64,000 bases of DNA from Candidatus Omnitrophota bacterium (GTDB lineage Bacteria; Omnitrophota; Gorgyraeia; Duberdicusellales; 4484-171), in the NCBI GenBank assembly GCA_024231025.1, contig JAAEQW010000090.1:21490-85489 (forward strand), in the 5' to 3' direction. This document shows positions 740-44,100 of this stretch, piece after piece; the first letter of the stretch is position 1, and each line of letters begins with the position of its first letter. The position numbers were made by a program, and so were the translations under genes. Below the pieces are notes generated by a model. It saw only the letters and a list, made by a program, of their open reading frames with translations. It was not told the origin of the DNA and searched no databases.

Positions 740-905
740 CAAAAATTCCAAATTCCAATACACAAATTACAAACAAATTACCCGCCTGCCGGCGGGCAGG
801 CAATTCCAAATGATCAAAATATCAAACAAAATAAGACACTATTGTTTTGTTCATTGGATTTTTGGTAATTGGATATTGTTTGTGGTTTGTGATTTGTTAT
901 TTGGT
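740..905. repeat. Intergenic palindromic repeat element, copy A. It has AT-rich ACAAA(T)TAC arms around a GC-rich hairpin core CCCGCCTGCCGGCGGGCAGG, and its left and right arms are imperfect reverse complements.
   Basis: Direct reading: left arm caaaaattccaaattccaatacacaaattacaaacaaattac; right arm ttggtaattggatattgtttgtggtttgtgatttgttatttgg. The GC hairpin sits at 781-800. A related copy lies at 24655-24835. Confidence 0.55.
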
Positions 906-5094: not shown

Positions 5095-5291
5095 AATATT
5101 ACTCTCCTTATCTTTTAAATTCCGTCATCAAATAATAAAATTCTAATATCTAAATGCGAAACCCTAAACAAATTCTAAGTTTGAATTTTGGTTATTGCTA
5201 AGAGGCGAGCCTGAAAAAATTATTTGTTAAAACCAGCGGATTTACAACACATTCCAAATTGCCTGCATAAAACTAGAGTTCGCCAATGAGC

Positions 5292-5456
5292 TTATCTGCC
5301 CTTTCTTTTGGCTTTTTCTCTCCTTTTTTGAGACGGCTTAACGTAATGTTGTCTTTCTCTATATTCTTTTAGAATACCTTCTCTTTTACACTGAACCTTA
5401 AACTTTCTCAATGCTCTTTCGAAATCTTCTCTTCTCTCGATCGTTACTTCTGCCAT
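5292..5456 (-). CDS. rpsU: 30S ribosomal protein bS21 (54 aa), copy 1. It is below the size cutoff of the supplied ORF track and was found by manual translation.
   Basis: Minus-strand translation MAEVTIERREDFERALRKFKVQCKREGILKEYRERQHYVKPSQKRREKAKRKGR is canonical bS21. Confidence 0.8.
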   Translation of the reverse strand: MAEVTIERREDFERALRKFKVQCKREGILKEYRERQHYVKPSQKRREKAKRKGR

Positions 5457-5569
5457 GTTTTTACCCCCATTAAATTAGGGAAAATTATACCGTACTTTCA
5501 GAATAATGCAATAAAAAAATCCCTTGAAAATTTCTTTGAAAAAAGGAGCGATTTTGGTATACTCTTACT

Positions 5570-8434: not shown

Positions 8435-8600
8435 GACAATAGACCATCAATAGACCAAAGACCATAGACAAGAGACCAGAGACAATCGATCTAGTTGTAA
8501 GTTATAGGTTTTAAGTTCGGAAAATTCCGGACCAGAGACCATAGACCGTTGGTCTAGCTATAAGTAGGGGCACAGCGCGCTGTGCCCTTGCGGACAATTT
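8435..8600. repeat. Intergenic repeat cluster: a run of AGACCA(T/A) direct repeats at 8-11 nt spacing plus a perfect 20-bp GC palindrome GGGCACAGCGCGCTGTGCCC
   Basis: Direct reading of tagaccatcaatagaccaaagaccatagacaagagaccagagaca ... ccagagaccatagaccgttggtctag. The palindrome is at 8564-8583. Confidence 0.5.
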
Positions 8601-9619: not shown

Positions 9620-12600
9620 TCACGCCGCAAGATCAAAGACAGGTTCTTCTTGTTCCTGATCAGCTTTTTTGAAATCACGCTCAATAGTAATGATTTGAAA
9701 TGTAAAGCCTTTGAAAGTTTTAATGTCAAAAGGAAGTGACTCAAAATTAGAAAATGGCGCAATGGAGCCACCTGTTTGCGACTCTTCATCTATCTCTAAC
9801 ATTTCTGGATTAAGATCAATACCGCCGGGATTGGTGTTTGGGAGTGTAGCGTCGACCTCTCCCCCGGCGGTTTGTTGTGCCGACGCTAAATAATCTAAAT
9901 GATTTTTCTTTTCATTATTTTGGTCAAACAAATTAGCCCCGACCAATGCTGGTCCTGCACTATTTTCTATAGAAGAATTTTGTTGAACGGTTAGAATTTG
10001 GTTACCATCAAACGCTTGTTTTAATTTATCCCAATAATTCTTTTCGCCTATAACCAATAGATTACCCTTTGTTTTTACTTCTGAGGATAAGCGCTTGGCA
10101 ATTTTGGAAAAATGATATCGATTCATCCAATAGCAGCTGACATATTCAGCGCAAGCAGTTACCACTTTGGTTCCAACAACTTCCCTGTTTTTAGCCTTCG
10201 TATGCATCGCTAAGATTTTCTCATCAGCAATTGTTCCATTGGATGATTGCGCGGCCCGAACCTCTCGATCCCACTCCATAAACAAATCGATCTCACCATA
10301 TTCTTTACACACCCTAAACAAATCATGCCTAATATCAACAAGTTGACGCCCCTCTGCTAAACTATCATCCAAAGATATAATTTTCTTGAAAAATCTAGAT
10401 GAGGTTGCGGCCAAATAAACCAGGGGTCCGTATAACGTTAAGAATGTATCCTCAATCTTGTTACGCTTAAATCCCAAATTCTCCATCTTAATCGTAAACG
10501 CATCGATCAAACCAACCAATTCGTTAATCCGCTCGAAACCACGGTCGCGCGTAAACCCTACCGCAGCAACATTACTAACGCCACCGCGGAGAAGCGCTTT
10601 TTTTATCGAACGCAATTGCTTTCTGTAAAGATGTGTTTGCCATTGGAAATTGAGATCAAGATCTAAAACAAGATCTTTAAAATACTGAGCATCACCATCA
10701 TCGTAAGCTTTGATTAAAAATTCTAGAAATTGACCGATATCCTGAGAAGCTTTCACAGGCTTAACAATAAAAACATCTTTCTTGTCTAGCGAATCTCGTT
10801 TTATCCCCAATTCATTTTTCCCAGATAATTCTCGAGCATATCTAGTCATGCCTAACAAATGGCACCCCCCAACAACAGTCATCGCAACACCATCCTTACC
10901 TACAATCCCGCTTGCTTCATGCAGCGTGTTTTCAATCATTGCCCGATCCCTATCTTTTGCCGATAACATAAAAAAGTTAAAAGAATCGCAATAATTACGA
11001 ATTACCCCCAATGGGATGCGTTCTTCTACACCAATCTCTTTCATAATTGCCAAAACTTCTTTCGAAGCAATTGAAGTCGATTGGCTCAAATCGTATAACC
11101 GATCAGACAAATCAATACTCTCTTTAGCGGTAAGAAATTCAACAATCTTCTTTCCATAATAAGCTGCAGCCTCTAAATAGACACTCGCTTCTTTACGCAG
11201 CAAATCATCATCGATAGCCACAAAATGCACCTGATCAATGAAATCCCTCATATGTACATGAAAATATCCTAGCACCCCGTAGGTAAGGAGAGTAAAATCA
11301 TCGGCAATCTCTTCAATATTATTTTCCAAGTAATTGACGATATCTTCTAAGTTTGAAACATTATTACCTTGCTTCTTTTTATCAGCAATGTAGATCCGGA
11401 CATTAGAAAAATGCGCCTGCATATTCGCGATAATATGCCGATGCCCATTGAGAGCTTCTTTCCGTACTCGTTCTACCCCCTGATGAGTTAATTCTAATCC
11501 CAACATAGCAAGTTTACCGCAAGCCGCTATCTCTCTAATCGTTTCTATATCTTTTTGTAACGAGTCCATCACCTTGCGTTCAGTTTGAAGTAAAGTGAAA
11601 AGATCCCAACAGTATCTCACGCTGGAAGCAGCATTGAGAACATTATTAGAAAGAGCCTTCTCAATCATGTCGTATTTTAAGGAATCGGCATGGCTATACC
11701 CTAATATCGCTAAGTCCCCTCCCGAAGCAATGCCTCCTCGAACATATCTAAGCACGCTATCATGATTTCGCACACTGCGATTACTGACACCGGAAGCTCT
11801 GGCAATAGCCTCTGACACCGGACCCACACCAAGGCTAACCGCTCCTACACCAGCCGCCTTAAAGAAACTCCTTCTGTTTATTTCCATCGGCTTTAGTATC
11901 TCAGCGCCTCTATCCTTATACTCAGCTTTAATCTCTGATAGATTGCGCTCAGTTACATCAACTTCAACATTGATCCCTATTTTCTCAAGCTTTTTCTCCA
12001 GGGCCTTGGCATTTTTACGGTCAAATGGATCAGCGTCAATCAAATATTCATATAGACCGTCTATCTTCTCTCCTTCAGGCAGGCGCTCATTAATCAACCT
12101 CTCAACATCCAATATTGTCATCATTAAACCGAGTGGCATATCCTCTTTCTTCAAAACTCCAGCAAAAGCTAAACCAAAAAAATTAGCCAACTCTTCTTCC
12201 TGCTCCTTCAATCCCTTAGAAAGCCTGCCAAAAAGACGCACTTCGTCGAACAAAGCATGGGCAGTTTCATGGCCATCAACAAAACGAATCGCTTCCTCCA
12301 GTGTTGGAACCCGACCAAATTTATCAGCAAGATCACTGAGCTGCTCTTCCAACTGCTTGCGATTCAAATGAACCCGCCGAATTAACCTACCATCCTCATG
12401 AAACCGAGCATGCAACCCGTGGATTATATTGGCGATGGTCAGTGGAGAAACTAGTGGTGGAAAATATTCAGTATCGGCGTCGGAAGTAACTGGCACAACT
12501 ACATCAGAGAGCCCTTCTTCATCGCTGGTAATTTGATGACTTCTTGAATTTGGATCAATATCGACCCTTGACGAAGGAATGCTAACAGCCTGGGACTTCG

Positions 12601-15600
12601 CACTCATAGCGGCTTTCTTTAATAATGTTTCCATATTAGAAAGCATCATCGATACTTCTTCGATGCTGTTGGCAGCAATAACATTATCTAAATCCGGCAA
12701 CTCCAGGCCTTCTGCTTTTAAATCGCTGGTTAACTCATTATTTAATTTTGCCATATATAATTGCTTACCGGCACCGCCATAATTCAAAACAATAACTTTT
12801 TTATTGTTTTTCAAAGCTACTACTGCTTCGTGAATGGTCCCTAAACTACCATTCAACACGATCATGACATCCGCCACCATTGCCATACCTACACGGCGCT
12901 GGTGCATATCCTTACCAATATATTGTACCGCTACTCGATTATTAGGAGATATCCTACTGTAACCAACAGCACTCATTCCTTGAGGTAATAAAGCAAAAAA
13001 CCGTTCATCACTATTCTGACTCAACGAACAAACCCCCTGATAAACATCTTTTCCTACCCCTGGAACACCACCGGTAAATACATAACCTTTATCTTTTACG
13101 TAATCAGCTAAGCATCTCCCTAATTCTTCTCCTATTGTAGGAGAGTAATCTGATGACGGGCTAACCGCGCCGATAACTCCAATCCTTATCCCTTCATACT
13201 CTTGCCGTATATATTCTGCTTGCCATTGTATTTCATCCCCTTCCTGATCGCTACGTCTTCGCGTTACGTCTTTTTGACCAGGAGGAATCTTTTCGTGAAA
13301 AAATATTTCTAGCAACCATCGAGTCGTATCTGGACTATCTACCCCTACCCCACTCGGCATAATCAACATTGGGTAATCATTCCCTTCAACACTATAACTA
13401 TTACCTATTTTAAGAATATCTTTCTGTTTTATTCCTGTTTGTTGAGCAAAGAAACTGGCGGCATTTCCTTTATTTACTTCCAAAGGCACTATATTCAGGT
13501 TAACTTCAGTATCAACTACTTTATATTTATGCATCAGACCTAAATCACCTAAAGCCATTTTTAAAGCAATAATCAACTCCTCCTTTTGCTCATTGGTAAC
13601 ATTATCTACAGCAATAATCGCTGAACGTTCAGTTACTTTAAAACCAAATTTCTCTAAATCCGTTGATTGTAATTTACCAACTATGCTTCTTCTATCCTGT
13701 GAATCAATAGCGTAACTGGTAAGGATCTCATCATTCCCTACGTCATAACACCCTGCCCCATTCTGCTCAAAAACATAAAGATTTTTTAATGCTTCTGAGT
13801 TTACTCTCCTGCGCATTCTTCTAACAAACACTTTATCTATCGACTTCGATCTGCCGCTTACAATACCCACCTTATACCCTGCCTCTAACATCCCGGCAAT
13901 TAAGTCTAAAATTTCACTGGATATTTTTTTCCCTCGAAGCTTCAAGGTGCCATCAATATCTAAGAGTACCCCACCGAACCTTTTATCTGCCCTAAAAGGC
14001 AAACTATCTAAATTATCTTTTTCAGCGACCGGCACTGCTCTTTGTTCATTCAAATCTACTAATCGCTCAACAATAGCAAATTGCCTTAGAAACTCATCTT
14101 CAAAAGTATGAGACGGATTTACTCCTTGACGGTTAACAACAAATCGTTTGCTGATATGATCATCGATGGAACCGCTAAGATGTTTATCCTGACCATTAAG
14201 CTGTCTCATGTAATCAGGCATATCCTGATTAGAAACATTGACAGCAGCAACAAACAGTCTCGATTGATTAATGGGATCTAATCCATCAATGCTGTCAGGA
14301 TTAAACGCCTCTGGCTTATCTCTCACTTGCCGATTTGACCATCGCCCACCCATAGTTACTGAAATATCGCTACGATTCATCGGATTATAATACTCACTTC
14401 TATAGGCATTGGCATCTCGATCTGGTATTGCTAATTCTTGCTTTAATCTTCTCAACTTATCTACAAATCTCATAATCATTTCATATGAAGAATAAACTTG
14501 ACCTTCATTACGTTGAGGATTGAAAAAATCCTGAAAATATTCCTGCTCTCTTAATTGATCCGCGCCTTCAATAAATTTGTCTCCTGCTAAAACATAATTA
14601 ATCAAAAGCATGACGTTAACAAAGGCTTTATGGGCATCAGGATAACGTGAACCACCTTGCACGTCACGCATAAAACTATTACTGCCGTCCATCATTACTA
14701 CTTCGGGTTGTTCTTTTAACATGAATCTTAAAGTATCATCATCGAAAAGCTGTTCTTTTCTTTTTGCACAAATAAGATGTTCATCATCATGGGCCTCAGT
14801 AGAACCAACCCTTACTTCAGCGATTTTTATCCCTAAGCTCTCTAAGCGAGTCTTTATTGGCGTCGCGAGAAACCAACCATAAGAAAAATTCGGCACGACT
14901 AAAACCTTTCGACCGGAATTTTTTAGAGCAACCACAAAGTCGAAGAACTTTTTCACCTCATAAGAAGTATAAGATAAGGCGGTTTTGGTTGAATCCTCCA
15001 CTTCATCTTGCGATAAACGGTTAAAATTCTCTAATATCTCCCTAAACCACTCAAAAGTATAAGTCTCTCGTTCTGACTCTCTCCCGCACTGACGAACATA
15101 CTCATTACAAAAACGACTATACTCTAAAGCTACTTTTAATTCATCATTAGGGTCAAAAGAATTATTAACTTGAGGATTATATACTCTCCAAATAGCCATC
15201 AAACTCTGGGGATCATTCGCCGCATCAATTCTTTGATTAAGAGTAGCCGAAGGATAAAATCCATTCTCTAAAAGCAATTTAGTATTTTCTACAAATTTCT
15301 GAGATATTTCATCTGACCGTAATGGCAATATAGAATCATAGGTAGAAGGATTATTTAATGCAGGTATAAATGTCTGTGATTGATGCAAAACCACAATAAA
15401 ATCACAAACGACCTCAAGATTTTCCTTGGTAACGAACTCGCTTTCAACTAATCTTTGCAGCATAGAGTACGCGGATTCTACTGTTTGTGCTGGTAAATGA
15501 TCCTTTACCTTTAGAGAAAATACAACTTCAACCATAATATCAAGGATGGCTTTTGCCTGGTTATTATCTGCAGCATGCAGCAATTTTTCTTTTAGAGACT

Positions 15601-18600
15601 CGAGATCGCTATATTCTAATCGAGGTTGGCTATGAATCAAACCAACACGCAATGCGTCGTAAAAAAATCTTCTACTATCATACTCAATACTATCGCCGGT
15701 TAAACCCAGAATAACCCTCGCTCTTTCCTTGGTGAACTCAACTTTACCGAAAAGACCCCTAAAAAATTCGAAATCACCAGATTTTTCATCCCAACAAGAG
15801 ATCAAAAGAGAAGCAAGTTGAATTTTTTCGAAACTACCATCTTCTGCCCAGCCAATAGCATCAATCAGCCCTCCAAATGAAAACGGCAAAAACGTAAGAA
15901 ATTCATTGCTTAAGATGCTAAACAAGCATTCTCGCGCTTGTGAATTTTGCACTTTACCAATTACTACCGCTAAATTATTAAATAAACTTGGATCTTTTCC
16001 GACTACATGCACTAAATCTTTCGCGATTCGTTTAGCTACCAAATTCTCACTTGAGATGCCTCCTTGAGAAACAATCCCGTCAATTGCTTTAACAATCAAA
16101 CCAGGATTACTAACTAATACCATGCCAATCCCAGCACCAACACGACCCTCTGTCCTTTCTACCACACTAAGTATAGTTTTGAAATCATCCTCATCGGGTC
16201 GCATCTGCTGATTACCAACGAGAGCGTGAGCAAAAACCGCGCTAAGCTCTCTTAAAGTTTCTTCATCTTCTGTGGTTGCTAATTTTGTAATAAAAATATC
16301 CTTGCTTGATTCAGTCAAAGAAACGTTCTCATTATTTTTGAGGAGGTTTTTTAAGACAGTGGCGGCTCTTTTTAAATCCTGCTCGTTATCAGCCCTGTCA
16401 ATTAAGACAAGTAGGTCTTCGGCATGATCTTGGCTGCTAAAACAGTGCCCGCAAACATAAGCGATCGCCGCTTTTGTTGAATCATTCTCTGTCTGGTTGA
16501 ATGATTGCGTCACTTTGTCGTTTAAACCAGAAAAATTAATAGCGTCTTCTTTAATTGCTCCGTAGCTGAAAGTCGCCGCCAAACGCCCATCAGTTTTTTC
16601 AAGCGCGGAAAGAATAGAGTCTACGTCTTCAGGGTCTAACCATTTATCTACTTTTGCTGCCCATGCTATATTAGGTAAAAGAGCCAGGATACTCTCTAAA
16701 TCTTCTTCATTTTCTTGATCACTAAACTCAGAGACAAGAGAGTTAAATTTGTTAAGAACGATTCTAAGACCTGCTTCGCTAATATTTAAATTATCCCTGT
16801 TTTTTTGCTTAATAATTGCCATCAAGATTGAAGATGCTTTAGCTAAAACCTGCTTGTTCTTCGAATCTCTTATTAAATTCAATAAAACTTCAAATTCTTG
16901 AGCATTAAACTTAGAAACAAATGGAAGAGCTATGTCGCGGCCAAGCGCATCATCGAGAACGGAAAGGATTGCTTCGCGCAAAGAATCATCACCAATACTA
17001 GCCAACGCACTGAGGATATCAGAAACTAAAGCTCTTGGCGCGCTACTGTCGCGAAATGCTGAACTAATAATACGCTCAAACCAATCAAAAGTAATCTTAC
17101 CCGATACGCTTAGGGTAATAAGATCAGAAATTAATTTAGAGACCGAATCATCTTTTTTGCCACGCCGTAAAACACTAATAAGAACAGATTCAACAGTACT
17201 TTTTAAATTTTCAAATTGAACATTATTAGTTGCTAAATCAACCATCTCCGCAAGCACATCAGGATTACACTCTAGGGCACCCTTAAACACCCAACCAAGA
17301 TGCTCTTTAGCCCTATCATCTACGGCTCTTTCGCGAGCCTGATATAATATCATTATTTGGTTACAATTAAGCTTAATTGCAGGATCGTCTCTATCTTGTT
17401 TTAAAGCTAGTGCGAGCGAACGCATAGTCGCATCATCATCTGAATTTTCTATCGCGGTCAAGATTCGAGTAGTAAAGCCCGGGTTGTATTTTACCGCCTC
17501 CCCTAAAACAAGCGCGTAGCAAACCTTGATTTCGTTCCTTTCAGGATCATGCGTTGATTGTTCCGATACTGAAAGAGCTAATTCAATTATGCGCGGATTA
17601 TTAGATAATAGCCGTTCTCCAATAGATTTATTCACCCCCCACATGTAATCATCTGAAACACCGACGAATATTCCAGCTAAAAGTGCCAGGTTTTCTGCGG
17701 TTTGTTCTAAATTATCACTAATAATCTCATCTTTAAAAACAAAAAAAGCAGAATTGAAAAAATCTTCAAGCCTCTGCTCATGGATAGATTCCCTTGTGCT
17801 ATTAGTATTCAGCACAACGCTCAACAGTTTATCGAGAATCTCATCTAAATTTTCTCTAGTTTGTTCTATACTATCTTCTACTATGATAATATCCTTTAAG
17901 GACGTAAGAAAATTGCTAAACAAGGGTTGAAGGTAACTTTCCGGCCCAGAAGCTTTTCGCTTAGGACTACTGGATCTTCGTATTTTATTGAGAAAAAATC
18001 TTAGCTCATTGCCGATCTCCTGTAAATTAGTAATCGTTTGTTTAGGGTCATCTTCTACAATAATCACATCTCTTAAGGAGGAAATACCGAGAAGTATGTA
18101 CTTTGCGTCATCGATCCCTGCTTTAGTACATAAATCTATTAATTCCTGTGGTAGCCCTTGTGAGTGTTTAATAATTTCCTGAAAACCAGAAGGAAGCTCG
18201 TCAAACGGTATGTCAGTAAAAGGATAGAGCTTTTGAAAGTATTCCGATTGCACTGAATTTCTCTGAGTCTGATTTTTTTTAATAAATGTAGTTAGGGCTT
18301 TATCGGGCCCGAGTAATTTTGGATACTCATCCGGCATAATTTGTTTGGCTGCTGCTCGCAGTAAATCATGGCCTGACGCTTTCGAAGAGAGCAATTTGTA
18401 ATTTTTAAAAGCACGCAAAAGAGCGTCACCCTCAATAGTCAATCGTGCCACCTCCGAATTTTGATTATTCTTTAAGACTAACTTCCCTTTAAGCCATCCG
18501 CGCTGAGTCAAAAACCTAAAAACTCTGTCTAAGCCAAAACCACACAATAGCTTGGCAATCGCCCCTTTCACTTCTATTTTTATTAATCCTCTCTTTAATA

Positions 18601-20428
18601 AATACTCGCCAATCTCATGCGTCAATGCCAAGCCTTTTAATTTTGGATCATTATAAATATCACGATAAAGAGCAATAAGATTCGGATTGTCCAAACCTTG
18701 TTCCCTGGCAAAACCAAATAAATCTTTAATTAACTTCAAAAAAGTAAAAAGTTTGGGTCTGTCTTTAGAAGGAAGTGTTTGAGCTAAATCCAATATCGCT
18801 AAAAAAAACTCAAGTCCAGTTTCCTGATCTCCAAGGTCCATTCGCTCAATACTCTCCCGAGCCAATAAAGCCGCATCAAGATCCTCCAAGTCAAGATCAA
18901 CCGCCCCCAACTTTTTCCCCTCACCATCAAACACCTCAACAACCCCCACGCTTCCTTCAACCTTAACCTCTCCTGCTACAGCCTGATTTCCGATTTGCGC
19001 AATATCGCCTGACTTATCCTTTGAAGAAACATCAGACGGCGATTCTTTGAGCTGACTACCAGAGACTAATGCCCCATCAATGCCATCAATTTTAATTTTT
19101 GCCATTGTTGGATGATCATCAGTTTCTTGTTTAATCAGTTGATCATGTTCTGAGCTTGTGCCAACTTCTAATTGGTCTGGAACCATTTTGACAATTTCTT
19201 CAAGACTCGCGCCCCCCGAATAATATCTGCGATTGAGTTTTTTATTTAAATGCGGATCAAAATCACGACGAATATAATTGTAAACACCTTTTTTGTAAGC
19301 TTCTAAATATTGGTTATAGATTTTCTCTTTTATCTCGGGGTCATCCCCTTCAACCCCGGCAATTTTGTTTTTGTCGAAATATATCTGGTCTAGGATGTTA
19401 GTCTTCGCTTCCGGGGACACGTACCGTTCTCGGCCTTCGGCCTGCGCTTCCCTGCCCGTCCGGCAGGCGGGCGGTACATGTCCCCGTGGGGTTTCGACAG
19501 TCTGGCGAAGCCGTTTCTTAAACCAGGTTGCCAAAATCAATGCATTATATATTTGACGTAATTGACTGAAAGACTGCCCATTGTTTACTTCTTCTTCGAT
19601 TGCCGGCAAGATCACTTCTTTTGCAATTTGGGTAGAAATATTATTAGAGGGCACGGCACGCCGTGCCCCTACGATGTTTTGTTTTTGGGCAACACCTGCC
19701 TGCCCGTCCGGAAGGCGGGCCTGCTGGTAGGCAAGGTAATCTTCTTCCAACATAATCTTAAGACGACTTTCTTTAACAAAGGCACGATTTCCTGCCTGAT
19801 GAACCACACATTTTTCAGGAACAATCCAAATCTTATTAAATGTATTAAGTGGTATTTTGGTTGTGCCATACAACTGATAGGCTCGACTATAAACCTTCTT
19901 CCAAAATTCCTTGCCTAATGGACTCTCCGGATAAGTTAAAGATGCGGTTAATTGCTTTAAAATATAATCTTCGCCTAAAAGATCGCGGCCCATATCAGTT
20001 AAGCCTAATTCGTAAGGAATTACGCTATCTTTTTCATAAGGCGAAAGATTAACCCAAAGGTCTTTTGCCGGAGTGGTTAACGAAGTAAGAAAATACTTTA
20101 TTAGTTGTTGGGTCTGAATCTTTAACTGCTCATCACTAAGGACCGCATCACCTTCATCAATAATAAAGCTAAATTTAAATGGGTCATTAGGCGAAAACTC
20201 TAAGCCCCGCAAGGTAATTGGCTCAAAATTGAGGGTAGTTTTGACAAGCTTAGTGGGAGCAGGCATATACTCCAATGCGGAAGTATAGCCCGGACGAACC
20301 AGATATGTGGAAAAAATAGATAGCAGAAAAACACATATAAAGAACCCGATTAGGGCTCGCAGTCGAATTCCCGCTCGTTTTTTATAGAATAGTAAAATCA
20401 TAAACCAAACACCATATAAATGTAACAT
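9620..20428 (-). CDS. Giant multi-domain protein (3602 aa). It has an N-terminal TM anchor plus a roughly 400-aa domain shared with the 38194-44445 protein. Downstream are long HEAT/ARM-like helical repeats, a HAD-IIB phosphatase-like domain (motif LLDIDGTL, about 13300-13990), a SLOG/LOG (TIGR00725-like) Rossmann domain (about 12770-13200), and a TraB/GumN/TIKI-like domain with GxxH...GxxH (about 10800-11750). A conserved C-terminal module is shared with the two other giants.
   Basis: One uninterrupted 10.8-kb ORF. The domain calls rest on motifs read from the translation: DIDGT; GGxPGxG...NGSLGTIHE; ILGYSH...VVGGCHLLG. The C-terminus is PGGIDLNPEMLEID...PFDIKTFKGFTFQIITIERD. Confidence 0.85.
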   Translation of the reverse strand: MLHLYGVWFMILLFYKKRAGIRLRALIGFFICVFLLSIFSTYLVRPGYTSALEYMPAPTKLVKTTLNFEPITLRGLEFSPNDPFKFSFIIDEGDAVLSDEQLKIQTQQLIKYFLTSLTTPAKDLWVNLSPYEKDSVIPYELGLTDMGRDLLGEDYILKQLTASLTYPESPLGKEFWKKVYSRAYQLYGTTKIPLNTFNKIWIVPEKCVVHQAGNRAFVKESRLKIMLEEDYLAYQQARLPDGQAGVAQKQNIVGARRAVPSNNISTQIAKEVILPAIEEEVNNGQSFSQLRQIYNALILATWFKKRLRQTVETPRGHVPPACRTGREAQAEGRERYVSPEAKTNILDQIYFDKNKIAGVEGDDPEIKEKIYNQYLEAYKKGVYNYIRRDFDPHLNKKLNRRYYSGGASLEEIVKMVPDQLEVGTSSEHDQLIKQETDDHPTMAKIKIDGIDGALVSGSQLKESPSDVSSKDKSGDIAQIGNQAVAGEVKVEGSVGVVEVFDGEGKKLGAVDLDLEDLDAALLARESIERMDLGDQETGLEFFLAILDLAQTLPSKDRPKLFTFLKLIKDLFGFAREQGLDNPNLIALYRDIYNDPKLKGLALTHEIGEYLLKRGLIKIEVKGAIAKLLCGFGLDRVFRFLTQRGWLKGKLVLKNNQNSEVARLTIEGDALLRAFKNYKLLSSKASGHDLLRAAAKQIMPDEYPKLLGPDKALTTFIKKNQTQRNSVQSEYFQKLYPFTDIPFDELPSGFQEIIKHSQGLPQELIDLCTKAGIDDAKYILLGISSLRDVIIVEDDPKQTITNLQEIGNELRFFLNKIRRSSSPKRKASGPESYLQPLFSNFLTSLKDIIIVEDSIEQTRENLDEILDKLLSVVLNTNSTRESIHEQRLEDFFNSAFFVFKDEIISDNLEQTAENLALLAGIFVGVSDDYMWGVNKSIGERLLSNNPRIIELALSVSEQSTHDPERNEIKVCYALVLGEAVKYNPGFTTRILTAIENSDDDATMRSLALALKQDRDDPAIKLNCNQIMILYQARERAVDDRAKEHLGWVFKGALECNPDVLAEMVDLATNNVQFENLKSTVESVLISVLRRGKKDDSVSKLISDLITLSVSGKITFDWFERIISSAFRDSSAPRALVSDILSALASIGDDSLREAILSVLDDALGRDIALPFVSKFNAQEFEVLLNLIRDSKNKQVLAKASSILMAIIKQKNRDNLNISEAGLRIVLNKFNSLVSEFSDQENEEDLESILALLPNIAWAAKVDKWLDPEDVDSILSALEKTDGRLAATFSYGAIKEDAINFSGLNDKVTQSFNQTENDSTKAAIAYVCGHCFSSQDHAEDLLVLIDRADNEQDLKRAATVLKNLLKNNENVSLTESSKDIFITKLATTEDEETLRELSAVFAHALVGNQQMRPDEDDFKTILSVVERTEGRVGAGIGMVLVSNPGLIVKAIDGIVSQGGISSENLVAKRIAKDLVHVVGKDPSLFNNLAVVIGKVQNSQARECLFSILSNEFLTFLPFSFGGLIDAIGWAEDGSFEKIQLASLLISCWDEKSGDFEFFRGLFGKVEFTKERARVILGLTGDSIEYDSRRFFYDALRVGLIHSQPRLEYSDLESLKEKLLHAADNNQAKAILDIMVEVVFSLKVKDHLPAQTVESAYSMLQRLVESEFVTKENLEVVCDFIVVLHQSQTFIPALNNPSTYDSILPLRSDEISQKFVENTKLLLENGFYPSATLNQRIDAANDPQSLMAIWRVYNPQVNNSFDPNDELKVALEYSRFCNEYVRQCGRESERETYTFEWFREILENFNRLSQDEVEDSTKTALSYTSYEVKKFFDFVVALKNSGRKVLVVPNFSYGWFLATPIKTRLESLGIKIAEVRVGSTEAHDDEHLICAKRKEQLFDDDTLRFMLKEQPEVVMMDGSNSFMRDVQGGSRYPDAHKAFVNVMLLINYVLAGDKFIEGADQLREQEYFQDFFNPQRNEGQVYSSYEMIMRFVDKLRRLKQELAIPDRDANAYRSEYYNPMNRSDISVTMGGRWSNRQVRDKPEAFNPDSIDGLDPINQSRLFVAAVNVSNQDMPDYMRQLNGQDKHLSGSIDDHISKRFVVNRQGVNPSHTFEDEFLRQFAIVERLVDLNEQRAVPVAEKDNLDSLPFRADKRFGGVLLDIDGTLKLRGKKISSEILDLIAGMLEAGYKVGIVSGRSKSIDKVFVRRMRRRVNSEALKNLYVFEQNGAGCYDVGNDEILTSYAIDSQDRRSIVGKLQSTDLEKFGFKVTERSAIIAVDNVTNEQKEELIIALKMALGDLGLMHKYKVVDTEVNLNIVPLEVNKGNAASFFAQQTGIKQKDILKIGNSYSVEGNDYPMLIMPSGVGVDSPDTTRWLLEIFFHEKIPPGQKDVTRRRSDQEGDEIQWQAEYIRQEYEGIRIGVIGAVSPSSDYSPTIGEELGRCLADYVKDKGYVFTGGVPGVGKDVYQGVCSLSQNSDERFFALLPQGMSAVGYSRISPNNRVAVQYIGKDMHQRRVGMAMVADVMIVLNGSLGTIHEAVVALKNNKKVIVLNYGGAGKQLYMAKLNNELTSDLKAEGLELPDLDNVIAANSIEEVSMMLSNMETLLKKAAMSAKSQAVSIPSSRVDIDPNSRSHQITSDEEGLSDVVVPVTSDADTEYFPPLVSPLTIANIIHGLHARFHEDGRLIRRVHLNRKQLEEQLSDLADKFGRVPTLEEAIRFVDGHETAHALFDEVRLFGRLSKGLKEQEEELANFFGLAFAGVLKKEDMPLGLMMTILDVERLINERLPEGEKIDGLYEYLIDADPFDRKNAKALEKKLEKIGINVEVDVTERNLSEIKAEYKDRGAEILKPMEINRRSFFKAAGVGAVSLGVGPVSEAIARASGVSNRSVRNHDSVLRYVRGGIASGGDLAILGYSHADSLKYDMIEKALSNNVLNAASSVRYCWDLFTLLQTERKVMDSLQKDIETIREIAACGKLAMLGLELTHQGVERVRKEALNGHRHIIANMQAHFSNVRIYIADKKKQGNNVSNLEDIVNYLENNIEEIADDFTLLTYGVLGYFHVHMRDFIDQVHFVAIDDDLLRKEASVYLEAAAYYGKKIVEFLTAKESIDLSDRLYDLSQSTSIASKEVLAIMKEIGVEERIPLGVIRNYCDSFNFFMLSAKDRDRAMIENTLHEASGIVGKDGVAMTVVGGCHLLGMTRYARELSGKNELGIKRDSLDKKDVFIVKPVKASQDIGQFLEFLIKAYDDGDAQYFKDLVLDLDLNFQWQTHLYRKQLRSIKKALLRGGVSNVAAVGFTRDRGFERINELVGLIDAFTIKMENLGFKRNKIEDTFLTLYGPLVYLAATSSRFFKKIISLDDSLAEGRQLVDIRHDLFRVCKEYGEIDLFMEWDREVRAAQSSNGTIADEKILAMHTKAKNREVVGTKVVTACAEYVSCYWMNRYHFSKIAKRLSSEVKTKGNLLVIGEKNYWDKLKQAFDGNQILTVQQNSSIENSAGPALVGANLFDQNNEKKNHLDYLASAQQTAGGEVDATLPNTNPGGIDLNPEMLEIDEESQTGGSIAPFSNFESLPFDIKTFKGFTFQIITIERDFKKADQEQEEPVFDLAA
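19411..19489. repeat. GC-rich palindromic element inserted in-frame in giant gene 1. Its inverted arms CCGGGGACACGTACCG / CGGTACATGTCCCCG flank a nested GCCCGTCCGGCAGGCGGGC hairpin. It is translated as ...PRGHVPPACRTGREAQAEGRERYVSPE...
   Basis: The arms are exact reverse complements except for one mismatch. GC content is far above the surrounding gene. The paralogous giant 2 has no insert at this position. Confidence 0.6.
19649..19722. repeat. Second in-frame GC-rich palindromic insert in giant gene 1. It contains the GGGCACGGCACGCCGTGCCC hairpin plus a CTGCCCGTCCGGAAGGCGGGC hairpin and is translated as ARLPDGQAGVAQKQNIVGARRAVP.
   Basis: Both hairpin types also occur intergenically, at 8564-8583 and at 781-800 / 24757-24777. 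The paralog (giant 2) carries a different palindromic element at the equivalent position. Confidence 0.55.
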
Positions 20429-24654: not shown

Positions 24655-24835
24655 ATCTCAAGCTCCAAACATCAAATCACAAACAAATCACAATAACCAA
24701 AAAATCCAATTTCCCAAACAGTTTTAATTATTTGGTAATTCGAAATTGAATACTGTTTGCCTGCCCGCCGATGGGCGGGTAATTCGTAATTTGTAATTTA
24801 TTATCTGGCATTTCATTTTTTTATAAAACTTTTGA
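24655..24835. repeat. Intergenic palindromic repeat element, copy B. It has AAATCACAAACAAATCAC arms and a CCTGCCCGCCGATGGGCGGG hairpin core, and is related to copy A at 740-905.
   Basis: Over the first roughly 45 nt (tgtcaaaaat(c/t)...cacaaacaaat(c/t)ac) and the terminal ggcatttcatttttt, the two copies are about 80% identical. Confidence 0.55.
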
Positions 24836-24861: not shown

Positions 24862-25842
24862 TTAAATACGGCATTTCGTTATCTTTGATAATTGTTTTTT
24901 ATTCTTATCAACCACCTCAACGCACGCCTTATAACCTTGCCAAACAATTTCACGCGCGCGATAAAACTCTAGCGTTGCAATATGGTCAGTGGCAGGAGTT
25001 ATTATTAAATCTGCCGCTTGAGATGTAGTCTTAACAACTTGATACTCCATAGTATAAAGCGCGTTTAGTATAGTTTCAAAAATAGACGGTATACCTTTTC
25101 GCTCTTCAATCTCCTTTACGTCAATGAAATTTTTAACAAATCCTTTTATACTACCAAATAAATCTCTATTGCCACTAAGCTTAACTACCCCTTCGTTAAC
25201 TGTTTTTGAAGCAGCACTTGCTTTTTCTGTCAGTAAAGACTGGCCAGATGTAACATTTGAAAAAGACTTAGGTTTTTTAACTACGTCTGAGGCTAAAATA
25301 AAATCTGCTCCTTTTTGACGTAAAACATTAGCCGGAAGCGGATTGACTATTCCTCCATCAATTAGAACCCGACCGTTATGGCTTACCGGAGTAAAAATTG
25401 CCGGAATCGATATGCTTGCGCGAACCGCTTTCACAACTGAGCCTTCATTTATTATTACTTCTTCACCGGTTTGAATATCGGTAGCAATAATCCACAGTGG
25501 TATTTTTAAATCTTTAAAATCAATATCACCAATTAGTAATTTCAAAAATTCCTCAACTTTATTGCCGGAAACGAACCCCTGAAACAAAAAAAAGAAATTC
25601 GGATCAGCAAGCTTTAAAATATTCTTAAAATCAAGAGCTAACACAATTTCCTCAAGCCCCTTGACTTCAAGATGTTTGGCGTAATAGGCTCCAACTAAGG
25701 CCCCCATGCTTGTGCCAGCAATCATATCAATTGCAATACCGCTTTCGCCTAAACCGTTCAAAACACCAATATGAGAAAGACCACGCGCCGCTCCACTTCC
25801 TAAGGCCAAGCCAATTTTTTTTCTCTTGTGTTTAAATATCAC
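24862..25842 (-). CDS. Patatin-like phospholipase
   Basis: Oxyanion GSGAARG, nucleophile elbow GTSMG and a downstream DGG catalytic Asp motif. Confidence 0.8.
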   Translation of the reverse strand: MIFKHKRKKIGLALGSGAARGLSHIGVLNGLGESGIAIDMIAGTSMGALVGAYYAKHLEVKGLEEIVLALDFKNILKLADPNFFFLFQGFVSGNKVEEFLKLLIGDIDFKDLKIPLWIIATDIQTGEEVIINEGSVVKAVRASISIPAIFTPVSHNGRVLIDGGIVNPLPANVLRQKGADFILASDVVKKPKSFSNVTSGQSLLTEKASAASKTVNEGVVKLSGNRDLFGSIKGFVKNFIDVKEIEERKGIPSIFETILNALYTMEYQVVKTTSQAADLIITPATDHIATLEFYRAREIVWQGYKACVEVVDKNKKQLSKITKCRI

Positions 25843-38193: not shown

Positions 38194-41100
38194 TTACCGC
38201 TCAACCGGCAAAAGCATCTGGGTGAGTTCGCTTGAGGAGATGTCTTCGATTGAGGTAACGGTGAAGATTAATCCTTCATAGCTAAACGTAGGGGCGCCGC
38301 TTGTCTGCGCCCGCTTCACAAAAACCCCCTCCCCTTCGGTTTGGAGGTTGAAGTTTTTGCGTAGCATGTCGATGCCACCGACACCACCATTATTCTCAGG
38401 AAAAGTAACTTCATAGACATACCCCGAAAAACGTAAACTTCTCCTGCAATCTACATAATGTTGCCTTTCTATTTTAACACCTTCATATTCCGGTTGGCTT
38501 AACAATTCTTTTATCAAACTATCGACCTTTTTAAATTCCGTGCTTAAGCCATAGGTTCCAGCTACAATTTTTCCTCCTGGCTTCACTACCCTTAAAGCCT
38601 CCTCTAGTACCTCCTTAGGGTGGGATACCGGAAACAGATCAGAGAGAACACCAGTTGAGGTCATCACAACATCTTGACTATGATCGGCTAACTCTTTCGA
38701 CTTAGACCTTTCTCCCGCTGAAAATTCACCTAAAATGTGCTTAATCTCTCCTTTCAATTCCTTTCTAAAAAAAGGCTTCTTTAAAAAGATATCAGCAGCA
38801 TCTTTACTCATTAAATGCGCTCGAGGGTCTAAACTGTACGCAATATAATCAATCTCTAAAGTTGATGTAACTACCCCTAAACAACCTAAAGGATAGGTAC
38901 CATCTATCCCAACATCAACAACTGAATCACCACTTTTTAATCCGAGCCCATTTAAAAAACTAACTACCTCCTTCCAATCATCTCCCCCCTTTATGCGCTT
39001 AAATCTTCGGATTGCAAAATCATCTTTGGTTCGTTTTTTAATAATCACACCCTTAGGTTCCTCCTGCCTGGATGAACCGCCCCGGGAATGGATTGCTGCT
39101 GGTGGCTTAAGTGGTCTCTTGCCTTTCTTGGGCTTGCCGTTACCCACACCTGGCGCTTGGAGAAAATCACCCCGCCAAGGTTTGCCTGAAATTCGTCGAC
39201 CAGCATCAGCCGGAGCAGGCAAACCTTCATTTTCAAGTTTCAAGAACTGATCCTTTATCTCCTCGCTCATAACCTTAAGGTATTCAGGCTGATTGAATAT
39301 CCAGTGACTAGCGCCTTCAATTACTATCTTTACGGTCTCTATCTCTTCGCCCTTGCTGTTATGAAATTTCCTATCCTCTATCTGATAGGGAAATCGAAGT
39401 TCACCAGAAATGCTAATAATTCTTCTTAAATGTGGATTGTCTATAATCTTTTTTGCCTTATTCAACATCACCCCTTCTATTGCAACGATAGTTGAAACTG
39501 GATATTTTTCTTGCTCAATCGCCTGAATCCATAAATCAAAACCAGCGCTATAGGCAACAGGAATAAATGGTTTTTCAGATAGTTGTTTAGGTATTTTTTC
39601 AGTTATTTCTCTCACCAGCTGCTTGCGCTTAAAAAGGTATCTATGAATATCTAAGACTCGCCTAATTTCTTTAAATATCGCGTTTTTCGGCCATTTCTCG
39701 CTTCGTTCAAACAGCGAAACACTATACACCTCTTTTGCTTGATTTGCTAATAGCTTGAAAAAACCTTCCATATATTCTGGCAATCCACTCCCCCAATTTT
39801 CCACCCCATTCGAAACCACAAAAGGCGAAGAACTATTGGTTAAAGAAAAACCAGAACCGTCCGTTTTATTGATTTCATAAATATATCCATTAAAATCTAA
39901 CCCTTCTCTATAATTAACATAATTTGGTTCTCCCACCCTAATACCTTCGTATTCCGGTTGGCTTAGTATCCTTTTTATCAATCTCTCAACTCTTTCGAGT
40001 TCAGGTTTCATGCCATAAGTTCCTGCTACAATTTTCCCTCCTGACTTCACTACCCTTAAAGCTTCCCTTAGCGCCTCTTCGGGATTGGAATCCGGTGCCG
40101 GATCAGAAAAAACACCAGTTAGGGTTATCACAACATCTTGACTATGATCGGCTAACTCTTTTGACTTAGACCTTTCTCCCGCTGAAAATTCACCTAAAAC
40201 ATATTTAATTTTTCCTTTCAATTCTTTTCTAACCAAAGGATTCTCTAAGAACATTTCGGCAATATTTTCACTTTTTTCATGCGGTCCACGCTGCAATCCA
40301 TACCCCACATAATTAATTCCTAAGCTTGACACGACTAACCCTAAATAACCCGAGAAATGAACCCCCTCAACCCCAACATTAGTAATTGAATCACCGTTTT
40401 TTACTCCTAACTTATTTAATAATCCAACCGCTTCTTGCCATGCCCTTTCGCTTTTTATATTATTAAATATTCCCAAATCCTCAAGATCCTCTGCAGTCGG
40501 TTTATCCGCAATCGCACCATCAATCTCTTTAATCGGCATAATTATAGTAAATGTTGTGCCGTGGTTTTGGGAATCTTCTTCAATATGGCGGCTTTTGACA
40601 TTGATTGTTGCGCCTAAATCATCGATAAGCTCTTTAACTATTGATAAGCCAATTCCGGTACCAAGATTACCTTTGGTAGTTTTGCCTTCTTGAAAGATCC
40701 AGCCATCTTTTAGTTTATCTTCAAAGATACCAATACCATTATCGGTGATTGAAATGATTACGTTATTATCGGTTTGTTTTACACTTGCGCTAACTTCCCC
40801 CTGATAAGGCTCATCCTTGATTTGCTCACACTCCCTAGTCGCATACGCAGCATTATCAAATAAGTTGCTCCAAATAAAATCAAGCTGGATTGCGTTAGCC
40901 TCCATCTGGACACTGTCATTACGCGACATTTGCCAATCAACCTTTTTGTAAATATTGCGATACCTCTCTAACGCACTATACAGAGATTCCCCGACACCTA
41001 CTATTTTCATTTCGGCAGAGTCGTCAATGGCATCTTTTAGATCTTCTAGAGCATCCAAAGCACCTTGCCCTCTTCGTCTGACCTCCAGTATGGTATCGAT

Positions 41101-44100
41101 CATTTCATCCAACTTTCTATCCAACTTCTTATCATCACTACCAGCTAAGTCACCTTTAATCAATTGAAGAAAATTAATTACTTCTTCTTTCGAATCTATT
41201 ATTTCCTCTAATTGCGTAATTAAATCTACGACTATTGCGTAAACTAAAGATGGGAAATCTAACCTCACAGTTAAGTTGAATATGGCAAAGGTAGAGGCAT
41301 CGACGATGTTTCTGAGATTTGTTTTTAATCTTTCACTTTTTCTCGATAATTTTTCCCCTAATTCAATCCTTTTATCATCTTTATTTTCGCTTTCCCTTAA
41401 CTTTTCCAATACCGAATCAATAAGTCCAAAATCAAAAACACTAGGCATTATTCCATGTGAGTACGATTTTAGACCGATTTTATCAATTAACGCCTTAATC
41501 GTTGTCGGTGGATTAGGATAACCTTTTGATTTTAACTCAAGCCTGCTTAAGATAATCAAATAATCTATGCTATCCTCTGAAGATGTTGTTACAGCTTCTT
41601 CCTGATCGTACATATATTTAAAATAAATTAAGTACTTTTTAAGATAATCTTTCTCCTGCTCATCTAACTTTCGCTCACTTGAAATCTCACGTAATTTTTC
41701 CAGATTAATAATGCGTTCTTTTATAAGATAATAACTTTTTACTCTTTCAAATTGCTCCTTTACATAAACCATATCATCATCGATAGGATGTTTGGGGTAG
41801 AGTTCTTCCATGTAAGTAATTAAATCCTGCAAGCCGCTTTTCTCTTTGTCAGCTTCCCAATCATCCTGATAACCATCGGGAATATTTTCAAAAACATACC
41901 CCATAATCTTTGCTAAACTATAAATGTCCCAAGAAGGATAACGAGGGTAAAACCTTAATCCACTCGGAATAAAACTATCCATCCCTGAGCGCCTAGGCAT
42001 TGCACCAATCGGCGCAACGAATTGAGGATCAATCATTCCAACTCGCCTTTCTTGATTAACGATTATATTGCGCGGATTAACATCACCAACAACAAGCTTT
42101 TGTTTGTGAACGTTTTCGCAAAAGCTGAGAACTTTGGCAAAAACATCAATTTGTTCAACAACAGAAAAACTACCAAAAATCTCTCCCACCTCAAACCAGC
42201 TATCAACAACTTGATAACCTTCTATTTTAATTACCTTTTTTCCAATTTGTTGACCACCAGAGATATTCTCCTCAGTCATCTGAAGATTACCATCTTCATC
42301 AACACCCGCTCCTTCTTTTTTTAACTGTGAAAACCCCGGCATATCGAGTTGATTAAATTTGACCAGAGTTCTTAACTCGCGCATATTCATTTTATTTTCT
42401 AATGCCAGGATGCTTTCGCCTTCTTTCCTATATCCACCACCAGAAACTTTACAAAAAATTGCATCATCATCAGAAAGAGAATAAATAGTAGAATACCCTC
42501 CAACACCTAACACAGACCTACCTAACGTATTGACAATTGCATTGGTAAAGTACGGGCTAAGTAGCGGATCGTTTTTTATTGCATCTAGATAATATTGCCG
42601 AACTTGTGCAGCGCTTGTGTGAACCGGCAATGGTTCATGCTCTGAGAAAGTATACTTTATCGCAGCAGTTTCTTCTTTAGTAAGTTGTGGCGTTTTTAAA
42701 GAAGGGAAATTATCCAAAATGGTCCAAAGCCCTCTCGCACTTATGCTTTTAAAATAATCCGGTAAGTAATACCTGCTATCGTCTTCGCAAACCATTCCTA
42801 CATCTGATAAGATTTGTAGTGAATTATTTACCCCTTTATCATGTCCGATCGCTACCATTTCACGCTCAAACCCTTCAAGCGTTTTAGCCTTATCTTTAAA
42901 GATTTTATTCCTCATCATATACCCTAAAAGAACATCCGGAGTCACTTCCAAAATGGAATCAGAAACCGACCCACCACGGGGATGGTTTGCTGCTGGTGGC
43001 TTAAGTGGTCTTTTGCCTTTTTTGGGCTTGCCGTTGCGCGCACCTGGCGCTTGGGGAGAATCCCCTCGCCGAGGTTTACCTGAAACTCGAGGGCGAGATT
43101 CAAGAGAAATAGAACCGTTCCTATTTTCATCAACTGTTCGGCCAGAAGCAATAATTCTTTTGGCTTTGGTGGCAGAAAACATGCCAGAAGCAACGGCATC
43201 GCTAATATTTTGTGCGACTTTCAAGTTGTTCGGTAAAGAAATAAAATTGCACCCTCCGGAGAAATATTTTCGGTTGATGCGTTTGTGAGTTGTTGGGTCG
43301 CGTTCGGGTTTTATGTAATTGTAGACGCCTTTTTTGTAGGCTTCGACGTAAAGATTATAGATTTTATCTTTGGCGCCTTTGCCTTCTAGGTCAATGCCTT
43401 TTATTTTGCCTTGATCGATGTAATGTTGATAGAAGGTATCTTTGAACTTCTCTTTGAACCATACCGCAAGGATTAGGGAATGATAGATTTGACGCAAGCG
43501 TGCGAAATTCTTCCCGTGATTTACGTCGTGGGATATTTTAGGAAGGATTGTTTCGCGCATCAGGCGAGATGTTATTTCATTTACTTCCGGGGACACGTAC
43601 CGATCCCCGACTACGTCGGGACTTCCGGTACATGTCCCCGTCCGATCCGGTACATGTCCCCGTGCAACATAATCGTCCTCAAGCATTACCTTCATCGTGG
43701 CTTCGGTGATATAGGCGACATCTTTATTTTCATAGACTACGCTTTTATCGGGCGTGATCCAAACCTTGTTAAAGGCGTTGATGGATAAATCAGAGACGCA
43801 AAGTTTTGCGTCTCTACAGTCTTCATAAACCTTTTCCCAATAATCTTTTCCGGTTTCACTCTCTGGATAAGTTAAAGAAGACAAAAGCTGCTTCAGAATA
43901 TAATCCTGACCCAACAGATCCTTTCCTAGATCGGTTAGGCTCAAATCATCTGGAGCAACTCTTGTCTTTTCGTAGGGAGACAAGTTAACCCACAATTCCT
44001 CTTCAGGAAGGGTCAAACCTGCCAAAAAATACCGGATAAGACGGCTTGCTTCCTCTTGGTTAATATCTTCCTGATTAGCGGTGTCAACGATAAATTCAAT

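Follow-up and report, generated by a model that had tools for sequence, protein, structure and literature searches.

Translated palindromic repeats, probably of REP/TIR type, in the N-terminal domain of giant genes from a Candidatus Omnitrophota bacterium

Three GC-rich palindromic blocks interrupt, in frame, the related N-terminal domains of two giant genes in a 64,000-nucleotide stretch of DNA from a Candidatus Omnitrophota bacterium (contig JAAEQW010000090.1, positions 21,490 to 85,489 of the forward strand; the whole stretch is referred to here as the window). These blocks are probably non-autonomous elements of the repetitive extragenic palindromic (REP) or terminal inverted repeat (TIR) type, moved by a REP-associated tyrosine transposase (RAYT) or by its TIR-flanked counterpart (TIRYT) and kept where they were in frame, free of stop codons and placed in a permissive loop.

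Results

Palindromic blocks in the giant-gene N-terminal domains

The blocks occupy 19412-19486 and 19649-19720 in giant gene 1 and 43588-43662 in giant gene 2, and all three are in frame. Their GC contents are 0.73, 0.66 and 0.65, compared with 0.38 in the remainder of the giant-1 N-terminal domain (N-domain). On the basis of sequence similarity, the blocks are assigned to three repeat families, here termed REP13, hpB and hpA. Each of the two REP13 elements is exactly 75 nt long and begins in codon phase 0 of its gene, and the giant open reading frames (ORFs) read through both, such that the arms themselves encode the peptide RGHVP...RYVSPE. The arm motif CGGGGACAYGTACCG was found six times in the window (five exact matches and one with two mismatches), where 0.03 would be expected, and the hairpin GGGCAC..GTGCCC twice, where 0.00 would be expected. 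RNA folding of the mRNA strand gave -48.1, -45.7 and -39.8 kcal/mol for the three blocks (z = -4.3, -4.3 and -3.0). An earlier note on this DNA had described translated, in-frame palindromic blocks at these places; everything that it said of their sequence holds, and the intergenic relatives that it listed are real, with ends that differ slightly from those it gave (revised in Table 1).

In giant 1, the REP13 arms CGGGGACACGTACCG (19412-19426) and CGGTACATGTCCCCG (19472-19486) are 93% complementary and appear on the coding strand as CGGGGACATGTACCG ... CGGTACGTGTCCCCG, the T.G wobble orientation. They enclose CCTGCCCGTCCGGCAGGCGGG (19451-19471) and GGCCTTCGGCC (19432-19442). In giant 2, the arm at 43588-43602 on the right is identical to the giant-1 arm, the left arm is doubled (43648-43662 and 43626-43640, coding-strand sense) and an inner hairpin, CCCCGACTACGTCGGG, lies at 43605-43620; the interiors of the two copies are unrelated to each other. 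The other giant-1 block, taken as 19649-19722, combines GGGCACGGCACGCCGTGCCC (19649-19668) with CTGCCCGTCCGGAAGGCGGGC (19700-19720). In the protein alignment, one linker, which follows DY[LV]A (site A), contains both the REP13 of giant 2 and the hpA/hpB block of giant 1. The REP13 of giant 1 follows WFKKRLRQT (site B) and has no equivalent in giant 2. This agrees with the arrangement proposed in the earlier note.

The window holds two copies of REP13, two of hpB and four of hpA; three copies across the families are intergenic. The REP13 elements are flanked as ...CCCCA-element-GAAGCG and ...TTGCA-element-GAAGTA, with no direct repeat at the ends, as expected for Y1 transposition. The hpB repeat is 24 nt long and has the classic design of a GTAG-headed REP (GTAGGGGCAC... 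at 19649-19672 on the minus strand and 8564-8587 on the plus strand). The GTAG head that defines REPs is found in hpB only, not in REP13 or hpA; GTAG REPs are also present in two other contigs described below (L137 and L146). The hpA consensus is [A/G]CCCGCC-N4-GG(A)CGGGCAGGCA; the two intergenic copies have a perfect stem and the two giant-1 copies have a common extra A.

A perfect 9-bp palindrome, GAGACGCAA-AGTT-TTGCGTCTC, was also observed at 43793-43814 in the giant-2 N-domain. It encodes ...CRDAKLCVSD... at a position where homologs have ...LYGTT..., and may represent a further small hairpin replacement in a fourth loop.

Anatomy and distribution of REP13

In REP13, a 13-bp stem (GGGGACATGTACC/GGTACGTGTCCCC) is conserved, as is, almost without exception, a T.G mismatch within it, and the interior varies. 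The minimal form of 29 nt, a 13-bp stem with a 3-nt loop, accounts for 115 of 181 copies, and interiors reach ~50 nt. The mismatch, which is C.A on the other strand, is kept in 125 of 131 short-loop hairpins, and this suggests that the REP13 hairpin is recognised as a single-stranded structure. Longer interiors are diverse yet mostly self-complementary (median z of -2.66), an 8-mer being common to just 6.5% of pairs. Two Planctomycetota copies are laid out in the same way as window positions 43588-43640, namely arm-ATCC-(variable hairpin)-CTTC-arm.

When both arms were used as the query against GTDB genomes, with one genome per species, the arm pair was found at 15 loci in Caulobacter/Caulobacterales, Planctomycetota, Bdellovibrionales and Gemmatimonadetes. 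At least 120 loci with a GC content of 42-72% were found in metagenome contigs, and in total the contigs with REP13 number more than 135 and represent several phyla. The viral contigs scanned contained no match, and REP13 is not obviously phage-borne. Comparison of the window and five REP13 loci with Rfam gave no match at the gathering score and only chance-level matches at E values up to 10, and a full-text literature search for the REP13 13-mer returned nothing. An origin of the blocks from tRNA or transfer-messenger RNA was rejected.

Two further arrangements were noted among the REP13 loci. In the Caulobacter loci (L002-L013), four arms are arranged symmetrically (U+ U- loop U+ U-) in a unit of 79-80 nt, which directly follows stop codons and by analogy resembles a bidirectional terminator or a REPIN. 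Duplications of an arm together with its flank are common (e.g. L054, L089, L103 and L049).

Association of REP13 with a RAYT-like Y1 transposase

All ORFs of 135 REP13 loci were clustered without prior assumption. The largest cluster of neighbours comprised ABC-transporter ATPases, a ubiquitous family (nine loci, median identity 33%). The sole well-conserved recurrent neighbour was an IS200-like protein of ~200 amino acids with a Y1_Tnp domain (PF01797), for which the top NCBIfam match was "REP-associated tyrosine transposase", over the full length and with a score below the RayT cutoff. At four loci (L114, L017, L050 and L046), several 29-nt REP13 hairpins lie on both sides of the Y1 gene. 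In a reciprocal test, a RAYT picked by protein similarity alone (P0127) proved to have REP13 hairpins abutting both ends of its gene (L148-L150). In this other organism, contig L148 carries intergenic clusters of REP13 hairpins, at ~15 hairpins per 20 kb, and the REP13 copy number differs between two contigs of one sample. Given that REP13 fits the TIRYT motif (see Discussion) and flanks this gene, it is classed among the REP/TIR-type repeats, with a RAYT-like Y1 transposase as its partner.

The transposase clade comprises at least 7979 protein clusters, from Omnitrophota (P0190, P0208 and P0231), Aminicenantes, Planctomycetota, Acidobacteriota and Deltaproteobacteria. Its relatives on plasmids all show less than 42% identity, and no match to the transposase sequence was found in the PDB. 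The RAYT adjoining REP13 in a Bdellovibrionales locus (L007) was considered as a REP13 cognate and dropped, this gene having its own, different flanking repeat. At 4650-5800 of that locus, the neighbours of the second RAYT-like gene and its repeat CGGGGGCCACACTATGTATTCCG are a REP13 hairpin and a fragment of a RAYT, so that one genome contains several RAYT/repeat pairs. Separately, two near-identical Omnitrophota contigs (L138 and L139) differ at ~11680-11810 by a 61-nt tandem duplication, which takes in the right-hand inverted repeat AAGTGATGTGTCCC of a unit of RAYT and histidine kinase.

Comparison with N-domain homologs

The giant-1 N-domain (19129-20428) has 826 homologs at E <= 0.001 among the candidates scored, and those that are named belong almost entirely to Candidatus Omnitrophica/Omnitrophota. 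Most N-domain homologs, close ones included, are without hairpin segments at sites A and B. The linkers of 120 homologs have median lengths of 31 amino acids (site A) and 16 amino acids (site B), compared with 50 at site B of giant 1. P0010, which is among the closest relatives, has the hpB peptide VGARRAVPSNN and is without the 14-residue hpA segment. At site A of P0036 (contig L147), the linker is empty and AT-rich, with 25 codons, and P0023 (L137), a member of the same clade that is ~78% identical to P0036, has GTAGGGACACGGCATGCCGTGCCCCTAC there.

Different palindromes were found in the same loops of other Omnitrophota N-domains and were verified on the DNA of independent contigs, such that the recurrent hits on one domain noticed earlier extend well beyond the window. 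Site A holds a 70-nt GTCATTCTGAGCGAAGCG... hairpin in P0045 (L144) and REP13 variants in P0061 (L136) and P0031 (L145); site B of P0090 (L146) holds GTAGGGACAGGTCGCGACCTGTCC, which adds six amino acids. A DNA scan, rather than protein similarity, led to L108, in which a giant ORF of at least 2950 codons has the N-domain, with REP13 at a third site. Here REP13 is part of a ~115-nt composite unit that L136 and L145 carry at site A, and two more palindromes lie elsewhere in the same N-domain. Some copies are decaying, such as RGHVQNRTTKNVSP in P0052, and these argue for neutral decay.

Two other translated hairpin repeats were observed in these N-domains. One is GTCATTCTGAGCGAAGCGAAGAATCTC... at 4640-4730 of L144 (peptides SERSEESQ and ILSAAKDL/PQND), and the other is GTCATTCCCGCGAATGCGGGAATCCAG at 2150-2194 and 2849-2923 of L108 (peptides VIPANAGIQ and SFPRKRESI). 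Peptides of both repeats presumably occur in "hypothetical proteins" of many phyla.

Within the window, all four independent intragenic events fall in the two N-domains, which make up ~2.4 kb of ~52 kb of ORFs. As a rough estimate, uniform tolerance of insertions would place all four there with a probability of ~5e-6. In the AlphaFold2 model of the N-domain (mean predicted local distance difference test score, pLDDT, of 70.5), residues 242-261 and 319-361, between confident helices, have a pLDDT below 50. These stretches overlap the inserts (residues 237-260 and ~315-340), although low confidence is also expected for alignment columns without homologs. The model is consistent with a position of the inserts in permissive, disordered loops.

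The window and its giant genes

The window has a GC content of ~38%, nearly all of its genes are on the minus strand, and three of its ORFs are giant (Table 1). Giant 3 was ruled out as a third paralog, its N terminus not being homologous to those of giants 1 and 2. The giant-1 N-domain matched no Pfam family, and a Foldseek comparison of its AlphaFold model with the PDB gave no significant match; the domain begins with predicted long helices that resemble a membrane anchor.

Other GC-rich islands and recurrent k-mers in the window were considered as hairpin elements and found to be protein-level repeats instead. In giant 2, a GC-rich segment encoding SGKP.RGD..QAPG..NGKPKKGKRPLKPP is present in two copies ~3.9 kb apart (39100-39240 and 43000-43100). 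Giants 1 (9800-9890) and 3 (55950-56050) have in common a short motif near the C terminus, ...TAGG...(N/T)PGGID(L/I)..., a hint that the two proteins, for all that their N termini are unrelated, have the same C-terminal signal or anchor. The HEAT-repeat array of giant 3 accounts for a GC-rich repeat at 58800-60800 with a period of ~100 nt (TGCTGCGGGGCCGAT...GAGCCC.GGCGCT) and for the local GC peak of 0.47-0.51.

Table 1. Positions of the giant genes and palindromic repeats in the window
Feature	Position	Strand	Description
Giant gene 1	9620..20428	-	3602 aa; inserts lie in the conserved Omnitrophota N-domain (N-terminal ~430 aa)
Giant gene 2	38194..44445	-	2083 aa; N-domain paralogous to that of giant 1, ~41% identical
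Giant gene 3	55789..63909		2706 aa
REP13, giant 1	19412..19486	-	75 nt = 25 codons, site B; encodes RGHVPPACRTGREAQAEGRERYVSP (aa 315-339)
hpA nested in giant-1 REP13 loop	19451..19471	-	CCCGCCTGCCGGACGGGCAGG on coding strand
Small hairpin beside nested hpA in giant-1 REP13	19432-19442		GGCCGAAGGCC
hpB, giant 1	19649..19672	-	GTAG-headed REP GTAGGGGCACGGCGTGCCGTGCCC on coding strand, in frame, site A; encodes VGARRAVP (aa 253-260)
42-nt segment, giant 1	19679..19720	-	ARLPDGQAGVAQKQ, aa 237-250; not in closest homolog P0010
hpA copy in 42-nt segment	19697-19720	-	GCCCGCCTTCCGGACGGGCAGGCA
REP13, giant 2	43588..43662	-	75 nt, in frame, site A; encodes RGHVPDRTGTCTGSPDVVGDRYVSP
hpB, intergenic	8564..8587	+	GTAG head, GTAGGGGCACAGCGCGCTGTGCCC
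hpA, intergenic	780..802	+	ACCCGCCTGCCGGCGGGCAGGCA
hpA, intergenic	24758..24780	-	ACCCGCCCATCGGCGGGCAGGCA on minus strand; ~80 nt 3' of the stop codon of gene 24862-25842(-)

Discussion

Origin of the blocks

The origin that we favour can be set out as a minimal scheme. REP/TIR hairpins would be mobilised as single-stranded DNA by an IS200-related HUH/Y1 tyrosine transposase (RAYT/TIRYT) whose gene would lie elsewhere in the genome, and a hairpin would be inserted without target-site duplication. Selection would then filter insertions into coding sequence, the survivors being those with a length that is a multiple of three, with no stop codon and in a permissive loop. The two disordered linkers of the Omnitrophota giant-protein N-domain would provide such loops, and the arms would be translated as peptides rich in G, R, P and V (RGHVP...RYVSP and VGARRAVP). 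By this scheme, the genome sampled here would encode a cognate transposase, the blocks would have entered the giant genes by transposition, and the elements would be mobile in this organism. Once in place, the inserts would most likely be neutral passengers that later decay.

Several observations weigh against transposition as the source of the blocks. The homologs compared are at most ~60% identical in the N-domain, and none presents a true empty orthologous site for the insertions of the window itself. REPs are mostly extragenic, and it is unusual that the only two REP13 copies of the window both lie within genes; with two to four copies of each family in the window, there is little sequence behind the notion of a repeat family in this genome. 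A tblastn search found no Y1/RAYT gene in the 64 kb, the Omnitrophota RAYT loci L138 and L142 are flanked by a variant repeat (GGGGACACATCAC) and not by the exact REP13 stem, and hpA has no demonstrated link to a transposase, the flanking test having covered REP13 only. Finally, the wobble strand of REP13 is the mRNA strand in five of five intragenic copies (two in the window and one each in L136, L145 and L108), and GTAG is on the coding strand in all intragenic GTAG REPs that were read, giving ~7 independent events when REP13 is included.

This strand bias could hint at a constraint at the RNA level. It would be equally well explained by strand-specific insertion of single-stranded DNA at the replication fork, with the genes co-oriented; strand-specific insertion at the replication fork is established for IS608.

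Alternative explanations

A bolder reading goes beyond transposition into tolerant loops. REP13 would then be one hairpin "species" that reached at least five or six phyla by horizontal spread of its Y1 transposase, and, linked to this, the N-domain loops would be a true landing pad; we regard this as rather unlikely. The loops may be actively targeted, for example through single-stranded DNA exposed at the highly transcribed 5' end of the giant genes. The inserts may instead be positively retained, with strong hairpins ~0.7-1 kb into a 6-11-kb mRNA tuning the coupling of transcription to translation, or retained since they diversify a surface loop.

The hairpins could also have been kept as RNA or single-stranded DNA structures within ~1 kb of the start of a very long mRNA, their mobile origin being secondary. 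Possible roles would include pausing of the ribosome or RNA polymerase during insertion of the N-terminal membrane anchor, a site of processing or stability, and regulation. Functional pausing structures had been offered in the earlier note as the alternative to mobile elements. The two most stable folds on the mRNA strand (z of approximately -4.3 for both) are consistent with such a role, as are the presence of the G.U wobble stem of REP13 on the mRNA strand in all five intragenic copies, the perfect match of five of five window arms to the consensus, and the recurrence of unrelated palindromes in the same gene region in many lineages. Against this, the same families are also intergenic, in both orientations; the positions vary between genes (sites A and B, the third and the fourth); some copies are visibly decaying; Rfam contains no match; and the REP13 orientations amount to ~4 independent events, which is not significant. 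Given in addition that most homologs manage without a hairpin at these sites, the RNA-structure explanation has less support than mobile elements, and we judge it improbable.

Slightly less probable again is an origin in one ancient insertion, or a few, from which recombination or gene conversion would have carried the elements to the many other paralogs and orthologs of the N-domain. Omnitrophota genomes hold several N-domain paralogs. In addition, the ~115-nt composite unit (REP13 with a tail encoding S.LP....KAPQGNN) is common to L108, L136 and L145, and REPs of the VGARRAVP type are found at site A in giant 1, P0010, P0002 and P0023. The composite unit is nevertheless at site A in two of these contigs and at the third site in L108, and REP13 is at site A in giant 2 and at site B in giant 1, placements that homologous recombination would not produce. 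The unrelated interiors of the two window copies, and the presence of the same families outside genes and beside a transposase, likewise argue against this route.

An ordinary ancestral or selected loop sequence, with incidental palindromy and GC content, would be compatible with the hypervariability of the linkers in all homologs and with the short extra site-B segment of the closest relatives (P0001, P0002, P0003 and P0033), but these extra segments are unrelated and rich in K, D and N (AT-rich codons), the blocks differ sharply in GC content from the surrounding domain, no more than 0.03 matches would be expected by chance, and the explanation is essentially refuted because a motif present in more than 135 unrelated contigs matches the 15-nt arms exactly. 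An assembly or sequencing artefact (chimeric joins or foreign GC-rich fragments) is just as improbable: GC-rich blocks in AT-rich genes, and a repeat otherwise found mostly in high-GC organisms, might raise the suspicion, but one long reading frame is kept through all of the blocks with conserved domain sequence on both sides, exact 75-nt elements with complete arms do not resemble mis-joins, and equivalent in-frame palindromes occupy the same loops in independent ENA and JGI assemblies.

Implications

Transposition into permissive loops, which remains the explanation that we prefer, would extend translated, in-frame palindromic insertions to Omnitrophota, a phylum known almost only from metagenomes and noted for giant genes. 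Two published accounts of Omnitrophota giant genes make no mention of palindromes or hairpins, and a full-text literature search yielded no such report for the phylum. The earlier statement that these elements are unreported in a genome of this kind thus appears true for Omnitrophota and does not extend to other bacteria, Opitutus terrae among them, for which the phenomenon has been published. What adds interest here is the reuse of the same loops by unrelated palindrome families across lineages, the identity of the REP13 stem across phyla and its near-invariant T.G mismatch. Horizontal spread of REP13, if true, would run contrary to the lineage-bound view of REPIN-RAYT systems.

There are also practical consequences. 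Two to four loops of the N-domain are marked as tolerant of insertion, which is useful for the definition of domain boundaries and for structural work. Annotators of metagenomic proteins should treat RGHVP...RYVSP, VG.R..VP, ILSAAKDL/PQND, VIPANAGIQ and similar peptides as translated repeats and not as conserved motifs. Together with the RAYT-like clade, REP13 offers a tractable system for the recognition of hairpins by Y1 transposases and for movement between phyla.

Comparison with known systems

The earlier note had likened the blocks to the selfish hairpins of Rickettsia. Selfish palindromic insertion is supported, but the elements appear to be of the REP/TIR type and not members of the Rickettsia palindromic element (RPE) families. 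The RPEs (RPE-1 to RPE-8), reportedly described by Ogata et al. in 2000, are said to be inserted in frame and translated in permissive regions, with intergenic copies as well. RPE-1 is ~100-150 bp in length, and we know of no transposase tied to RPEs. The blocks resemble RPEs in being inserted in frame in conserved protein-coding genes and being missing from homologs; by description, they are set apart by sequence, host and GC context, and they are 24-75 nt in length. RPE-4 and RPE-6 have been classed as CGTC-tagged REPs (Di Nocera 2013, PMC3733652), whereas the window elements carry no CGTC tag.

Likenesses are also found in the REPtrons, in which REPs or REPINs are paired with a RAYT (Nunvar 2010; Bertels & Rainey 2011; Di Nocera 2013, PMC3733652). 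In common with these are the imperfect palindromes, 24-30 nt long and frequently arranged as inverted doublets or in clusters, the flanking of a single Y1/HUH transposase gene by REP13 on both sides in other genomes, the lack of target duplication and the defining GTAG head of hpB. By contrast, REP13 has neither GTAG nor CGTC, its conserved part being a 13-bp stem with a fixed T.G mismatch, and its transposase scores below the NCBIfam RayT cutoff. The REP13 stem is, moreover, identical across several phyla, whereas REPIN-RAYT systems have been described as largely lineage-specific and vertically inherited (Bertels et al. 2017). The TIRYT genes are RAYT-like genes flanked by TIRs with the motif GGGGWSAS, which also occur as moderately abundant dispersed dimers or clusters and have been reported in Acidobacteria, Planctomycetes and Stenotrophomonas (Di Nocera et al. 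2013, PMC3733652). The GGGGACAC portion of REP13 fits this motif and REP13 flanks a RAYT-like gene, a likeness at the level of the motif; intragenic translated copies, however, were not emphasised in that account.

Bacterial miniature inverted-repeat transposable elements (Correia/NEMIS, RUP, Nezha and others; PMC10969869) also have terminal inverted repeats and a non-coding interior and can be inserted in frame. Unlike these, the minimal unit here is only 29 nt and its arms do not correspond to the termini of a DDE insertion sequence; the window copies have no target-site duplication, and assignment to this class was rejected on that ground.

Intragenic GTAG or CGTC REPs are known from several species. 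A close parallel to giants 1 and 2 is provided by Opitutus terrae, a bacterium of the PVC (Planctomycetes-Verrucomicrobia-Chlamydiae) group, in which the largest number of GTAG cases was found, in frame, as single units or dimers encoding ~20-30 amino acids, and in which both uvrA paralogs have been hit at different sites (Di Nocera 2013, PMC3733652). With translated in-frame palindromic repeats already known from Rickettsia and Opitutus terrae, the blocks described here constitute a new example and not a new kind of element. They differ from the Opitutus terrae REPs in their target, the uncharacterised N-domain of giant proteins, and in the several unrelated palindrome families that occupy the same loops in many lineages.

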